From Candidatus Poribacteria bacterium (GTDB lineage Bacteria > Poribacteria > WGA-4E > WGA-3G): DNA of 64,000 bases. The position numbers were made by a program, and so were the translations under genes. Under the pieces are notes generated by a model. The model ran no database searches and was not told where the DNA came from. It saw only the letters and a program-made list of their open reading frames with translations. The stretch is from the NCBI GenBank assembly GCA_965197475.1, contig CBDANF010000003.1:1920001-1984000 (forward strand), written 5' to 3'. Of the stretch, positions 25,469 to 31,622 are shown piece after piece. How positions within the stretch are numbered: the first letter of the stretch is position 1; every line of letters begins with the position of its first letter.

Positions 25469-25822
25469 TAGGGTTTTTTAGTTTTCCGAATATTGTAGGA
25501 GCGATCTCCGAATCGCGACCTTCAACCTCCGAATACGCTTTGTCGGGAATCGGAGTTCCCTCCTACAGGAAACTACATCTGTTGTAGGTGCGTCGGGAAT
25601 CGGAGTTCCCTCTTACCGCGATAGGTCGGGAATTGGGCTTCCCTCCTACTTTTGACAAACACGGATAAAAACCGAAAACTAAATAGCCCTGCACGTACTT
25701 ACAGGACTATTTAGTTTTAGACTTTTGTCCGATTTATCCGAAAAGTCGCGATTCGGAGATCGCTCGGACAGCGGAAAGTCTTAAATTGAAAATCTAAATA
25801 TCCGGAGAACTAAACAGCCCTG
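25469..25822. mobile_element. Two tandem MITEs (25469-25691 and 25702-25822) with TIR of the cagggctatttagtt type, carrying REPs
   Basis: Ends tagggttttttagtttt/aaaactaaatagccctg and caggactatttagtt/aactaaacagccctg; flanking direct repeats cacgtactta (25459, 25692) and acgcactta (25823). Confidence 0.75.
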
Positions 25823-25953: not shown

Positions 25954-26755
25954 ATGAAGTATTTTATAACAATGGGTATTATGGTGCTTGTTGCTGTCTG
26001 TTTGCTGATCGTTCCAACCCATGCCGCTATAAATCCCGACAATATCATGGGAATGTGGCTCTTTAATGAGGAGAACGGCGACACGGCAAAAGATTCGTCA
26101 AACAACAAGAATGATGGTAAAATCAACGGTGGTGCCAAGTGGGTTGATGGTAAGTTTGGGAAGGCACTTGAATTTGATGGAACAGACGATTGGGTTGAAG
26201 TTCCGCATTCAGACAGTCTTGGGTTTTCAAAAGGGACTTCTTTTTCTATCACGCTCCACTATAAAGGCACAAAAATAGGTGGTTCTCTCGTAGGCAAAAA
26301 CTATGAAGACACAACGCAGGCAAAACCTTGGTATCTTCTTTGGAACGGAGGAGTGGGTAATACAATATCCATCTATCTGCGTACTAATAATGACCAGAAT
26401 TCAAGAATTGATGGAACGTTGAATGTATCAGATGATAATTGGCATTTTATTGCTGCAATAGCAGATACGGATACAGAGAAGATTTCATTGTAGATTGATG
26501 GAGAAAAGAATGTTGAGGGTAACATGAATACCACCGATGGTTACGGAACTAGTGAAGGTGTGTTTCATATTTGGACATCATTCTGACAGGTATACCGCTG
26601 GCATCATTGACGATGTCACACTCTTCAATATCGCCTTAAGTGAAGACGAGATGGAAACTATCATGAACAATGGTGTTGAAGAAGTTGCGGTTGTTGACGC
26701 TATTGGCAAACTTACAACGACATGGGCTACAATTAAACATCGTGTATCTCAATAG
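25954..26755 (+). pseudogene. LamG-like domain protein with an in-frame TAG and a +1 frameshift
   Basis: ISL*IDG (TAG 26491-26493 where Y is expected); frameshift near 26572 (FHI/GHHSDRY); tail KLTTTWATIK. Confidence 0.8.
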
Positions 26756-26858: not shown

Positions 26859-27953
26859 ATGAAACAGATATTGACACTCCTTGCATTGGCGTTTTTGCTA
26901 TTTGCTGGATTAAGTTGTCAGGAAACCACAGAAGACCCAGATCCAATAGTTGACACATTAACGGGCAGCCTCCAAGGGGAGGTGCAATCAATTGAAGGCG
27001 TATCAATTCAGGTGCGCTTGTTAAAAGACGGACAACTCGTCGCGCAAACCGAAGCAGATGGAAGTTATGAGTTTGTTGAGTTTGAAGAAGGTGATTACAC
27101 GATTCAAATATCAGCAAAAGGCTATGAAATGACAGAAATGAACGTGACTGTCGTGGCGGGGGAAACTGTTTCATTGGACAAAGTGACACTGGAGGCGTTG
27201 GCGGAACCAGTATCACACCTGCGCGGCATTTTAACAGATATGAAAACAGGAAATCCACTGTCCGATGTGCTTGTGCGACTTACCGATAAAGCGGGTGAAG
27301 CGAACGAAGCGTTAACGACTAAAGAAGGTGTTTTCACCTTTGAGAATCTTCCAGTAGATCAAGCATTTACCTTGACGATCATGCATGCAGGTTATGAAGA
27401 TCACGAAGTTGCCGTGCAACCGATTCCCGCTGGTGAGACCTTTGAACAAAATATAGAACTCACCACAGGACCTGAACCGGTGGAACTGGATCCTGGTGAA
27501 GGGCTAAGCACCGGCAGCCAGGCACCAGCTTTTGAGTTGCCTGACGGTAAAGATAAGAAACATGCACTTGCAGATTATATTGGTAGCAAAAAGGTAGTAA
27601 TCGTGTTTTACCGGGGCAGGTTCTGACCGTATTGCCGCGAGCAACTCGGTGAGTTGCAAAAAAAATACGATAAAATTCAAGCTGAAGGCGCAGAACTTAT
27701 CGCTATCAGTTCTGATAGCGTAAAAGAAACGAAAAAGACGACTGATGATGGAAATCTCAAGTATCTGGTACTAGCTGATAATGACATAGAAACGATTAAC
27801 GCTTACAATGTTGTTGATCCAGCGAACAAGAGAATAGCACGAGCATCAAGTTTTGTCATAGATCTGGATGGGAAAATCACGTGGGTATCACTTGACGAAT
27901 GGGATCAGCGCGTACCAACTGCCGAAATTATATCAGAATTAGGTAAGTTCTAA
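26859..27953 (+). CDS. Selenoprotein 1: lipoprotein, two carboxypeptidase-regulatory-like beta-sandwich domains plus a peroxiredoxin-like (AhpC/TSA) domain, UxxC (364 aa, U256)
   Basis: ORFs 26859..27626 and 27654..27953 are in one frame across TGA 27624-27626: VFYRGRF-U-PYC-REQLGELQ; lipobox GLSC (C20). Confidence 0.9.
27641..27657 (+). promoter_or_regulatory. Putative SECIS hairpin 1
   Basis: GCAACTC-GGT-GAGTTGC, 14 nt after TGA; possible lower stem cgtatt/aatacg (27628 / 27664). Confidence 0.82.
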
Positions 27954-28142
27954 TGAATTTTACGATACGGCAACAACAAACACCCGTGCCGACAACGGTA
28001 GAAATAGCGTGGTAAGCAAGTACGTTTACGATGCTAATTCCTGAGTCGGCTCGGACTATTGAAGAGAGTAATACGCTTAGGGGTTGAGGGACGCGTATAA
28101 CCTGAAACACTACAAAACAGATTTTAAATAGGAGTTTTAACT

Positions 28143-29258
28143 ATGGAACGCGTATTGACACCCCTTGGATTAGGACTTTTACTTTTGGTTGCATTGGGTT
28201 GTGGGACGGCGGATAATCCCGTCAGTAAGATTACAGAAATTGAGACTACAACAGGCGCACTACGAGGAAAGGTACAACCAATTGATGGCGTATCATTTCA
28301 GTTCCGCTTATTAAAAGACGGACAACTTGTGGCGCAAACAGAAGGAGATGACGACTTCGTACTAAGAAAGATTGAAGCAGGGGATTACACACTCCGTATC
28401 TCAGCTCAAGGCTACCAAAAAACGGAACTCAACGTGACTGTTATAGTGGGGGAAACTGTTTCATTAGATGAAGTGGTACTTGTGGAATTAGCAGAGCCTG
28501 TCTCGCAACTACATGGGCTTTTAAGGAACGCGAGAACAGGAATACGGCTTCGTAAGGTACTTATCACACTTAGCGATGAGGCGGGAAAAGAATATGAGAC
28601 GTTGACGACAAATGAAGGTGTTTTCACTTTTGAGAATTTGCCCACTTTACAGACATTTATCTTAACAGTCAAGTACGCCGATTACAAACAATACGAACTC
28701 ACGGTGGAACCCATACCTGCCAACGAGACGGTTAAATTGTATATCAAACTTACACCATTGGTGAAAGCAAGGGAATTGGAACCCCTGGAGCCCGGCGAAG
28801 GCTTAAGGATCCATAGCGATGCACCAGAATTTGAATTACCTGATGGCAACGGTGTGTTGCACACACTCGCGGACTATCTTGAAGATGGCAAAAAAGTGGT
28901 ACTTGTCTTTTATTGGGGCAGTGGGTGAGCTGCTTGTCTAACGCAACTCGGTGAGTTGCAAAAGAATTATGACAAAATTCAAGAGGCAGACGCTGAAGTA
29001 ATCGCTATTAGTGTTGATACTATAGCGGAAACAAAACAGACAGTTGAAAATGAAGGTCTTGAGTTCCCGGTACTCTCTGATCAGGAAATGGAAGCAATTT
29101 CCGCTTACAATGTAGTAAATCAAGAAAACCGCAACGTTGCACGACCAGCTACTTTTATTATTGAGTCAGATAGAACAATTGCATGGGTATCTCTTGATAC
29201 TGTGAATGAGCGGGTACCAATAGCAAAAATTCTTATGGAATTAGGTAAACTTTGGTGA
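28143..29258 (+). CDS. Selenoprotein 2: paralogous lipoprotein, beta-sandwich domains plus peroxiredoxin-like domain, UxxC (371 aa, U262)
   Basis: In-frame TGA 28926-28928: VFYWGSG-U-AAC-LTQLGELQ; lipobox ALGC (C20). Confidence 0.88.
28943..28959 (+). promoter_or_regulatory. Putative SECIS hairpin 2
   Basis: GCAACTC-GGT-GAGTTGC, 14 nt after TGA. Confidence 0.82.
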
Positions 29259-29268
29259 AATCTTTTAA

Positions 29269-29655
29269 AACGTGAGTTCGACAAATGCCGTAGGTTGGGT
29301 AGAACAACGTGAAACCCAAAAGGTTGAATTGTTGGGTTTCGCTGTGCTCTACCCATAGGTGTCAATTTAGTGTGCTATATGCAAAAAAGATGCTGATTTG
29401 TGATGAAAGCAGCCCCAGCGGGGCAGCATGCGCGCATGGCATGCTGCATGAGGTGTCTGACAACACGTACACATACACACCTTTCGCCCCGCTGGGGCTT
29501 GAGTTTGGTAGGGGTCGCGTGTCTGGACACCTTTCGCCCCGCTGGGGCTTAGATATCTGAAATATAGGTTTATTTCCTTAAATTGACACCTATGGGTTTC
29601 GCTGTGCTCTACCCAACGGACATCTACATTTGGAACTTATTATTGAACTCACGTT
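29269..29655. mobile_element. REP-carrying MITE (TIR aacgtgagttc) with a second element nested at 29356-29592
   Basis: Outer element is the reverse complement of 56851-56990; inner TIR taggtgtcaattta/taaattgacaccta flanked by a 23-bp direct repeat tgggtttcgctgtgctctaccca. Confidence 0.8.
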
Positions 29656-29693
29656 TTTAAAAACTAATACATACATAAAGGGGTTGTTAATAC

Positions 29694-30260
29694 ATGAAAC
29701 AGACGCAGATATTCTTTGCGTTGGCACTTTTTCTGTTGGGTGCTTTGAGTTGTGGAACAACAGATAATCTTATCAATCAACCGGAAAAGTTGGAGCCGGG
29801 TGAAGGATTGAATATTGGTAGTCAAGCACCAGATTTTGAGTTGCCAGATGGAAACGGTGCGTTACATGCTCTTGCGGATTATATTGGAAACGACAAAAAG
29901 GTGGTAATCGTCTTTTACCGAGGCGGTTGGTGAGGGTCGTGTCTAACGCAACTCGGCGAGTTGCAACAGAACTACGGAAAGATTCAAGCTGCAAACGCAA
30001 AACTTATTGCTATCAGTTCCGATGATGTAAACGCGACACAAACGACGGTTGAAAATAAAGGACTCATATATCCTGTGCTTGCAGATAGCAACAAAGACGT
30101 GATTAACGCCTACAACGTCCTTGATCAAAGCGACACAACTATAGCAAGACCTGCATCTTATATTATTTCGCCGGATGGAACGGTTGCCTGGAAATCGATT
30201 GATACTGCGGCTGTACGGGTGCCAACAGCTACAATCCTCACAGAATTAGGTAAACTCTAA
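29694..30260 (+). CDS. Selenoprotein 3: short lipoprotein with the peroxiredoxin-like domain only, UxxC (188 aa, U80)
   Basis: In-frame TGA 29931-29933: VFYRGGW-U-GSC-LTQLGELQ; lipobox ALSC (C20). Confidence 0.9.
29948..29964 (+). promoter_or_regulatory. Putative SECIS hairpin 3
   Basis: GCAACTC-GGC-GAGTTGC, 14 nt after TGA. Confidence 0.82.
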
Positions 30261-31375
30261 TGAAGTCTTACGATAAGGTAATAGAAAACATTATTGCAGA
30301 CAGTGAAGCGGCAGCACTTAAGCAAGGGACGCTCAACCGCCGCCAATTCCTAAGTCGTATTGGTACTATTGGCGGTGTTGCGCTTAGCGCAGTTCCTGCA
30401 TTCGCGCAAATTGGTGGTGGACGGGTGCTAACCCCTACGACACAAATCGCGGCACTTACACCGGTTGTTGAAGTGATCGGGAAACAAGTTTGGGAAAACG
30501 ATAGACTCAACGAAGATGCTGTTAGCGAGATGGTTGACCGAGCGATGATGAAACTCACTGGTCGAGATACTGCTAAAGAAGCGTGGCGAGACTTTGTACT
30601 GCCGGACCATATTGTCGGCATAAAAATTAACCCGCTTGCCGGTCCAAAGTTAAGCACACACTCCGTGGTCGTCAATAAAATTATTGAGGGTTTATTCAGT
30701 GCGGGCGTTCTCAGAAAACAGATAATTATTTGGGATCGATTTGAGGAACATCTGCTTAATGCCGGCTATCCGATTAAGACAGATGAAGGGGATGTGCGGA
30801 CGCTCGCGTCTGATATGGACGACATCGGCTACGATGATGAAGTGTTCTATGAAACTGAAAAAGATAGTGTTACCAGACGAGAGAATGAAAGCACCCGTTC
30901 TCGATATTCGCGAATTGTCACAGAACAGGTAGATGTGGTTATTAATGTGCCTATCTTGAAACAGCATGATATGGCGGGTGTGAGCGGGTGTTTAAAAAAC
31001 ATGGCTTTCGGCAGTGTGGATAACACGCGGCGATTCCACGGTAAACCGCTTTACTGCAATCCTGCTATTGCCGAAATTTTTGAGCATAAGGTACTGAAAA
31101 AGAAGATCGTTCTAAATATTGTTGATGGATTGGTAGCGTCATTTGATCAAGGACCGACATATCATGCTGAAAGCACGTGGCAATATGGTGGGTTGTTTGT
31201 GAGTGCTGACCCCGTCATTCTTGATACGCTTATCCTTCAAACTGTTAATCAAAAACGCGAAGAATTGGGATTAAGTTCTATGTCAAAATATGCTAACCAC
31301 ATCACCTCAGCAAGCGGTCTCGATTTGGGCAAAAACTCACTTGACCAGGTCAATCTTCAGAAAATTGAGGTATAG
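30260..31375 (+). CDS. DUF362 domain protein with a twin-arginine signal
   Basis: LNRRQFL plus hydrophobic stretch; VGIKIN, INVPILKQH..AGVSGCLKN, ADPVILD; start overlaps the upstream stop (TAATG). Confidence 0.85.
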   Translation: MKSYDKVIENIIADSEAAALKQGTLNRRQFLSRIGTIGGVALSAVPAFAQIGGGRVLTPTTQIAALTPVVEVIGKQVWENDRLNEDAVSEMVDRAMMKLTGRDTAKEAWRDFVLPDHIVGIKINPLAGPKLSTHSVVVNKIIEGLFSAGVLRKQIIIWDRFEEHLLNAGYPIKTDEGDVRTLASDMDDIGYDDEVFYETEKDSVTRRENESTRSRYSRIVTEQVDVVINVPILKQHDMAGVSGCLKNMAFGSVDNTRRFHGKPLYCNPAIAEIFEHKVLKKKIVLNIVDGLVASFDQGPTYHAESTWQYGGLFVSADPVILDTLILQTVNQKREELGLSSMSKYANHITSASGLDLGKNSLDQVNLQKIEV

Positions 31376-31379
31376 TTTC

Positions 31380-31622
31380 ATGAAACGTAAATACATCTCT
31401 ATGCTTATTCTGTTGAGCGTGCTTCTAATCACAGTTGTATTCTCAGGATGCACCGTGACATTTACTCCTAACGACGCGCTGCAGTTTAACCTCTCGGAAC
31501 CGACGGATAAAGCGGTATCCCTTGTTGCGGAATTTGAATCGGGTGAAGAGGATAACGTTGCTGGTGATGTCACACAGAAGACGGGCAGTGTGTGTGCTGG
31601 CGGGGCATGCATCATCTATTGA
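31380..31622 (+). CDS. Small lipoprotein (80 aa) with C-terminal CAGGAC motif
   Basis: Lipobox FSGC (C24), acidic linker, ends GSVCAGGACIIY; ATG 4 nt after the DUF362 stop. Confidence 0.72.
   Translation: MKRKYISMLILLSVLLITVVFSGCTVTFTPNDALQFNLSEPTDKAVSLVAEFESGEEDNVAGDVTQKTGSVCAGGACIIY

Follow-up and report, generated by a model that had tools for sequence, protein, structure and literature searches.

The question raised by this locus is whether six short open reading frames (ORFs) in a row are the debris of decayed genes or three intact genes for selenoproteins. They lie in a window of 64,000 nucleotides (nt) of a Candidatus Poribacteria bacterium (GenBank assembly GCA_965197475.1, contig CBDANF010000003.1, positions 1,920,001 to 1,984,000 of the forward strand). 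Read with translation table 11, this part of the window yields exactly six ORFs (26859-27626, 27654-27953, 28143-28928, 28956-29258, 29694-29933 and 29961-30260), the six fragments that the original prediction, made from the letters of the window, expected from standard annotation. When TGA is translated as selenocysteine (Sec, U), they pair, as had been proposed, into three genes on the forward strand with one internal TGA each, encoding proteins of 364, 371 and 188 amino acids (aa). Gene 1 (26859-27953) has its UGA at 27624-27626 in the motif FYRGRF-U-PYC (U256-P-Y-C259), gene 2 (28143-29258) at 28926-28928 in FYWGSG-U-AAC (U262-A-A-C265), and gene 3 (29694-30260) at 29931-29933 in FYRGGW-U-GSC (U80-G-S-C83). 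Gene 2 ends at an ordinary TGA (29256-29258), which aligns with the TAA stops of the other two genes. That these are three intact genes for lipid-anchored, exported selenoproteins with a peroxiredoxin-like (Prx-like) thioredoxin fold is, in our judgment, practically certain. In this reading, SelB bound to a hairpin that follows each UGA inserts Sec, and the precursor would be exported, lipidated at Cys20 and cleaved by signal peptidase II.

The interpretation of the TGA codons as recoding rather than decay had been put forward at the outset, and the Sec machinery, the conservation of the TGA, the selection after it and a downstream hairpin agree with it. The source genome, a metagenome-assembled genome (MAG) that is 93% complete with an estimated contamination of 7%, contains the machinery for which a search had been advised: selA (E 2e-160), selB, selC and selD all score above curated cut-offs, the tRNA-Sec (75 bits against a cut-off of 47) adjoins selB, and selD itself carries a TGA. 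TGA ends 711 of the 3216 long ORFs and is therefore a normal stop in this genome. When 61 genomes were searched with gene 1, 59 had a match; among the 150 of 188 matches listed, 137 span the Sec site and carry one TGA, and the other 13 cover the stalk only. The TGA at this site is conserved across four families. On sequence evidence, purifying selection acts on the region beyond the TGA: the pooled ratio of nonsynonymous to synonymous divergence (dN/dS) is 0.25 for gene 1 (17 orthologs), 0.31 for gene 2 (7) and 0.18 for gene 3 (33), figures that come from pairs with one sequence in common and a dS close to saturation. At each of the three TGAs, contigs from a public run (possibly the source sample itself) match the genome sequence with 0 differences. 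Contigs from RNA libraries (three runs of one study), the holders of which are sponge metagenomes, also lie over the genes, and two of them cover TGA 1 and TGA 3 with 0 differences; they are not counted as expression evidence because such contigs carry no information on transcription, strand or level. Eight full-length database proteins (P0006-P0013) were rejected as Cys orthologs, as they carry W at the Sec position. This W is probably a gene-calling artifact, produced when short contigs were translated with a code in which TGA=Trp, since a genomic relative (locus L130) has TGA in the identical motif.

A hairpin of the selenocysteine insertion sequence (SECIS) type follows each UGA, at 27641-27657 in gene 1 (7-bp stem, GGU loop), at 28943-28959 in gene 2 (identical to that of gene 1) and at 29948-29964 in gene 3 (GGC loop). 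The bacterial consensus, as given in the part of the source consulted, consists of a loop of 3-9 nt with a G in its first two positions, located 16-37 nt from the UGA, on a stem of 4-16 bp with a minimum free energy of at most -7.5 kcal/mol (PMC13188914). Genes 1-3 agree with it at 21 nt, a 3-nt GGN loop, 7 bp and -9.8 to -11.2 kcal/mol. The same hairpin, with its loop 21 nt after the UGA, is found in the three genes and in two paralogs at C3:1591474 and C3:1881957, and nowhere else does the genome contain its exact core. Across 116 distinct homologous sequences, a set from which 7 records belonging to other Prx subfamilies had been removed with a U-x-x-C-x-x-Q filter, all six inner pairs are intact without exception (116/116), the loop reads GGN, GTN or AGT, and the outer pair is often open. 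There are 15 double-sided changes at 3 hairpin pairs (in 6, 3 and 6 sequences), as compared to at most 4 in 1000 column shuffles, a control that ignores kinship; slid partners gave 16-45% pairing. Some of the compensatory changes are nonsynonymous (L to F, E to Q). In the hairpin codons, synonymous divergence amounts to 0.09, 0.09 and 0.27 for genes 1-3, as opposed to 0.56-0.63 downstream. In the genome-wide control, the hairpin was detected after 16 of 86 TGA read-through candidates, compared to 2 of 96 for TAA and 1 of 80 for TAG; of the 711 ordinary TGA ends, 20 are followed by it.

Several observations weigh against recoding. While 98 of the 116 homolog sequences pass the SECIS criteria, 18 miss the energy threshold of -7.5 kcal/mol, and in the folding z-scores over 50 nt (-3.33 for gene 1, -0.69 for gene 2 and -1.18 for gene 3), genes 2 and 3 do not stand out. 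The Poribacteria loci examined yielded no Cys ortholog, and the nearest Cys homologs, outside Poribacteria, are 28-42% identical. The evidence for recoding is of a genomic kind.

The genome contains further genes of this kind. Two unlinked paralogs of the Sec lipoprotein family have the same hairpin, namely, G000:C3:1590524-1591803, with U-PEC on an Ig-like stalk, and C3:1881699-1882289, with U-TVC and stalkless (both +). Two other TGA-interrupted thioredoxin-fold genes encode a leaderless UxxS Prx-like protein (G000:C3:3922334-3922846, -) and an exported TlpA-like W-U-A-C protein with a TPR-like end (G000:C2:178310-179377, -). An exported tandem peroxiredoxin (G000:C2:1239090-1240106, +) has two in-frame TGAs, in PxDFTxxU and PxDFGxxU; its product is a double-Sec protein of the BCP type with a signal peptide, and relatives exist in genomes G037, G069 and G048. 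TGA read-through candidates with hairpins comprise three GMx-U-GAC motifs (G000:C3:938589, 1876626 and 1877137, all -), a CxxU (C3:1211133, -), a U-PLC (C3:799944, +), a U-HAP (C3:1054329, -) and a C-U site without explanation (C2:387990, +). Judging from the motifs, we take the GMx-U-GAC proteins to be HMA-like, the CxxU protein to be AhpD-like and the U-HAP protein to be formate dehydrogenase-like.

What kind of protein the heads are is answered by fold and motif. All three proteins match PF00578 (AhpC-TSA) with 110-113 bits against a cut-off of 26, and the heads are mutually 54-61% identical. The model of gene 3 (predicted local distance difference test score, pLDDT, of 89) is closest to AhpE and BCP, with a template modeling (TM) score of 0.91 to the AhpE target. 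The initial designation as peroxiredoxin-like is thus appropriate for the fold, but the residues of a peroxidase are absent. The peroxiredoxin signature is described as PxxxTxxC plus an Arg (PMC3322552). In all three proteins, PxxxT/SxxC(U) is missing and R/W-G-x-x-U-x-x-C stands in its place, and the column of the catalytic Arg is occupied by Pro in genes 2 and 3 (Pro153 in gene 3) and by Ala in gene 1, with an Arg one residue earlier. Pro stands at this place in 102 of 131 aligned Sec domains. We take it to be the thioredoxin cis-Pro, the position of which reads RASSF in gene 1, RPATF in gene 2 and RPASY in gene 3. Cys83 is present in all 131 domains, a set selected on the pattern of U and Cys at +3, and U aligned with the first Cys of FYRGGWCPxC in all 13 Cys homologs used, which are distant (28-42% identical). 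Sec sits at the thioredoxin-type first position and, because PxxxTxxC and the catalytic Arg are absent as well, the proteins are not true peroxiredoxins and are Prx-like by fold only. The claim that the TGA occupies the same aligned position in all three genes consequently stands, whereas its placement at the attacking Cys does not, as true peroxiredoxins attack via the second position of this motif. The NCBIfam models for ResA/TlpA (52-60 bits against 170 and 17-31 against 230), Sec-Prx TxxU (NF040737; 39-41 against 270), SelL-related redox protein (NF040769; 36-42 against 120) and other selenoproteins (NF053656, 17-22 against 100; NF041054, 18-29 against 300) all remained below cut-off.

The dipeptides between U and Cys, PY, AA and GS, were correctly noted for these three genes but are not fixed among orthologs: gene-1 orthologs mostly have PF, gene-2 orthologs AA, PA, PI, PP, PQ or LA, and gene-3 orthologs GS, GL, TL, GA, AL or GF. 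They differ between paralog groups, yet vary inside them, and it is reasonable to infer that the paralogs have different redox potentials.

As had been noticed, each gene starts with a hydrophobic leader and a lipobox with Cys20 (GLSC in gene 1, ALGC in gene 2 and ALSC in gene 3). By an ad hoc rule, 124 of 126 homolog genes have a lipobox-type Cys, and LspA is encoded in the genome; export and lipidation of the three Sec proteins are predicted from these features. Asp at +2 occurs in 3 of the 124 lipobox genes, and the sorting rule of E. coli may not hold in this host. The extra beta-sandwich domains attributed to genes 1 and 2 were recovered as two stretches each of PF13620 (CarboxypepD_reg), with none in gene 3; in gene 1, they span approximately aa 35-113 and 119-203, ahead of the Prx-like head. 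A single-sequence model of gene 1 has pLDDT values of about 70-85 in the stalks and below 50 in the head, and was read for the stalks only for this reason. It suggests two beta-sandwiches resembling CnaB/pilin-type domains at low TM scores. Stalk number varies from 0 to 3 in the cluster, and unlinked paralogs have long Ig-like stalks, their orthologs reaching 772-982 aa by stalk repeats.

The triplication is real, and the array comprises one to three genes in relatives: over 61 long loci, not de-duplicated by genome, one gene was found at 41, two at 15 and three at 5. In a quick tree of 146 rows, with support from the Shimodaira-Hasegawa-like approximate likelihood ratio test (SH-aLRT), gene-2 types form one group (9 rows, SH-aLRT 99), gene-3 types another (34 rows, SH-aLRT 95), and gene 1 groups with first-position PF genes. 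Because the gene-2 and gene-3 groups each span many species, the duplications are, as read from this tree, older than much of the genus, and gene 2 appears to have been often lost or never to have spread. There are 35 loci with gene 3 matches in named genomes, and all 29 close ones belong to Candidatus Poribacteria.

The initially proposed combination of Sec recoding, lipoprotein leaders, stalks and triplication holds, and the array additionally sits inside a larger, order-wide conserved gene cluster that the original prediction did not include. Directly downstream, at 30260-31375 (+), its start overlapping the stop of gene 3, is a single-copy gene for a DUF362 (PF04015) protein with a twin-arginine-type (Tat-type) leader (RRQFL; the TIGR01409 match is below cut-off). 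Orthologs are present in 142 of 151 genomes, with invariant Lys, His and Cys residues; no solved relative was found. DUF362 and LarA belong to one Pfam clan (PMC11770544). It is followed at 31380-31622 (+) by a single-copy gene for an 80-aa lipoprotein (Cys24) with a C-terminal C-x4-C-x-[IV]-Y, the C-x4-C tail being invariant in 63 of 63 sequences. This protein occurs in 137 of 151 genomes (136 of the 139 others in the order, 0 of the 11 outside). Among 49 loci chosen for their Sec gene, 45 have the lipoprotein beside it, and among 20 loci chosen for the lipoprotein, 15 have the Sec gene beside it. It matches no Pfam or NCBIfam family, its best Atlas value (0.76) is uninformative, and 7 plausible relatives were found among 1.84 billion representatives, two further repeat-protein matches being judged spurious.

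In the other three families (f2-f4), a TlpA-like CxxC lipoprotein adjoins the Sec gene; its ortholog is present in 39 of 40 genomes of these families as opposed to 0 of 99 of the family of this genome (E 1e-35). One genus (g3) kept TlpA, DUF362, the lipoprotein and a barrel and lost the Sec gene from the cluster (4/4 loci). At one locus of this genus, a Sec-gene remnant lies between TlpA and DUF362 (L110:5539-5800, -), with leader, stalks and UGA region deleted. The outer-membrane barrel is next in the cluster in families f3 and f4 and in this genome lies elsewhere, beside thiamine genes (G000:C3:2595793-2597070; L106:5793-7070, +). It has no Pfam match, and Atlas ties it, as a lead only, to clusters in which 35% of the members have BBP2_2 and 41% have SlipAM. 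The genome encodes one DsbD, the N-terminal domain of which also carries a C-x4-C pair; DsbB was not found, but at 93% completeness its absence is not established.

Upstream of the array, a LamG-domain gene (25954-26755, +) is disrupted twice, by a TAG in place of a Trp codon (26491) and by a shift of frame near 26575. It is intact in the relatives compared and is probably a true pseudogene, as public contigs over it show no gaps. Nested palindromic intergenic repeats, REP-like and highly repeated elsewhere, lie outside the genes at 29263-29661 (no strand assigned), with a second stretch at 25500-25769; their summed contig depth in one run (about 500-1270 compared to about 14 nearby) identifies them as multicopy elements. 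A promoter and terminator scan was indecisive (18 against 11.6 +/- 3.6; 7 against 5.7 +/- 2.3).

What, then, might the array do? The explanation we favor, with an even chance of being correct, is that the proteins are envelope thiol-disulfide reductases fed by DsbD. It is based on the UxxC motif, the Pro, the TlpA neighbor with its complementary losses, and the precedent of Caulobacter, in which an exported PrxL is reported to be kept reduced by a DsbD-class protein (PMC3322552). We infer the chemistry, electron donor, partner and spacer role as follows. The U-x-x-C center would work like that of thioredoxin or TlpA: the selenolate would attack a disulfide or oxidized Cys of an envelope protein, the second Cys would resolve the mixed bond, and the resulting selenenylsulfide would be re-reduced by the single DsbD. 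The stalks (2, 2 and 0 here; 0-3 in relatives) would place one and the same catalytic head nearer to the membrane or farther from it. The co-encoded C-x4-C lipoprotein is, on account of gene order and analogy with the tail of FrnE, the best partner candidate, and we tentatively propose it as the most probable relay or substrate, acting for exported DUF362 or for other client proteins in the envelope; FrnE is described as being regenerated by a C-terminal CxxxxC (PMC8945050).

A number of observations do not sit well with DsbD-fed reductases. PRX-like proteins have been inferred not to be disulfide oxidoreductases (PMC3514251). The gene 3 model is nearer to peroxiredoxins than to TlpA/ResA (AhpE, Z 25.0, root-mean-square deviation 1.5, 150 aligned; ResA, Z 19.1, 1.8, 134 aligned). 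The cis-Pro is replaced by Ala in gene 1 and is missing from 29 of 131 homologs. The complementarity of TlpA and Sec genes amounts to approximately two events among related genomes, most f2-f4 genomes keeping both. Nor is the cluster rigid, as DUF362 is elsewhere in family f4, and in genome G147, the Sec genes and TlpA are apart from DUF362 and the small lipoprotein.

The main rival, possible though on balance unlikely, is that of envelope selenium peroxidases, in which the first-position Sec would react with H2O2 or a lipid hydroperoxide, the second Cys would resolve, and DsbD, TlpA or the C-x4-C lipoprotein would regenerate the enzyme, making the array an antioxidant shield staggered in height above the membrane. 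The scaffold nearest to AhpE/BCP speaks for it, as do Arg152 (beside the Prx Arg position), Arg76 and Arg175, kept in 111, 123 and 122 of the 131 Sec domains. Furthermore, TlpA of Caulobacter is reported to reduce a periplasmic peroxiredoxin (PMC3322552), a TlpA-like gene adjoins the Sec gene in three families, and glutathione peroxidase carries Sec first, in UxxT (PMC1088965). However, PxxxTxxC and the Prx Arg are missing from all three proteins, the genome has a separate exported peroxiredoxin with two PxDFxxxU motifs, and Caulobacter PrxL, of a different Prx-like class, is described as being without detectable peroxidase activity (PMC3322552).

A further reading, which we regard as a long shot, is an order-wide envelope redox module of Poribacteria, in which Sec heads on graded stalks would trade electrons with the lipid-tethered C-x4-C shuttle serving exported DUF362, and the ancestrally linked BBP2/Slam-like barrel may surface some lipoproteins, facing the sponge matrix. 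If true, this would be a trans-envelope selenol relay without described equivalent and the first functional context for DUF362. A role in metal or cofactor handling, in which heads and C-x4-C lipoprotein would keep thiols reduced for exported DUF362, or pass metal to it, in the manner of ResA/Sco, is improbable: the overlapping stop and start, the single copy and wide occurrence of DUF362, its invariant residues and its clan shared with LarA (PMC11770544) fit this role, but DUF362 is unlinked in f4 and G147 and has no solved relative that we found, and two further Sec-gene paralogs lie in unrelated contexts. That nothing is recoded, and that pseudogenes, assembly errors, split genes or a genome-wide reading of TGA as Trp or Gly account for the locus, has a next to negligible probability despite the neighboring LamG pseudogene, the eight W proteins and the contamination estimate of the MAG, and was rejected in view of the TGA conserved in four families, dN/dS values well below 1 after it, the covarying hairpin, the concordant contigs, the use of TGA as a normal stop and the TGA in the genomic relative of the W proteins.

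These results correct the annotation: the six fragments belong to three genes, and relatives in the databases either stop short at the TGA or have W in its place. They reveal exported selenoproteins that were kept and multiplied across an order of sponge symbionts, which fits the reported enrichment of selA and selB in sponge symbionts (PMC5649159). The bacterial SECIS model finds a clean natural test in the hairpin series, with its compensations at the cost of amino acid replacements; the conserved neighbors offer a few testable candidate partners for a selenoprotein class of predicted function, and a role of the stalks as spacers can be tested with paralogs that differ in the number of stalks.

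The UxxC class recognized in the original prediction does exist: a "Prx-like protein" is listed as a selenoprotein (PMC1088965), and "Prx-like thiol:disulfide oxidoreductase" selenoproteins with PF00578 and UxxC/UxxU are tabulated (PMC13188914, Table 1). At the level of domain and motif, the proteins studied here share with this class, the published representative of which is WP_010940744.1, PF00578, UxxC rather than TxxU, an in-frame UGA, an intragenic SECIS and a status of prediction only. They differ from the class as described in these sources by the lipoprotein leader, the 0-3 CarboxypepD_reg-like (or many Ig-like) stalks, the tandem paralogs and the cluster. The FYRGGWCPxC-type Cys proteins, which we take to be PRX_like2 (CDD cd02970), have a motif that aligns column by column with that of the Sec proteins; unlike them, the latter have Sec for the first Cys, only 28-42% identity, no insertion before the Pro strand and the features of exported lipoproteins. 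A CxxC without other Prx catalytic residues is a further common trait (PMC3514251). AhpE/BCP and the Sec-peroxiredoxins are alike in fold only, as PxxxT/SxxC and the catalytic Arg are lacking here and Sec is in another position.

Another example is the ScsB-TlpA-PprX/PrxL system of Caulobacter, which likewise comprises an exported Prx-like protein, a TlpA-like neighbor, a DsbD-class donor and an exported true peroxiredoxin; PrxL differs in belonging to cd02969 and having distant Cys residues, and the system as there described has no Sec, stalks, DUF362 or C-x4-C lipoprotein (PMC3322552). The SAO/Tso operons also cluster selenoprotein genes; among their products are SaoX, a lipoprotein of which Sec variants exist, and SaoC, which is small, exported and ends in a C-terminal Cys pair (bioRxiv 10.1101/2022.07.06.499078; PMC13188914). 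As presented in these sources, they consist of unrelated protein families, whereas the clustered selenoproteins here are paralogs of one redox domain. The literature on Poribacteria with selenocysteine or selenoprotein, and on this domain combination, was searched outside subscription papers and supplements; no description was found, and the cell-envelope gene cluster is apparently undescribed. The UxxC class, exported selenoproteins, selenoprotein operons and Sec-bearing lipoproteins are already known, and no principle is overturned. What is new relative to these systems is the lipid anchor combined with 0-3 stalks, the genus-old triplication and the order-wide cluster with a Tat-type DUF362 protein and a C-x4-C lipoprotein.

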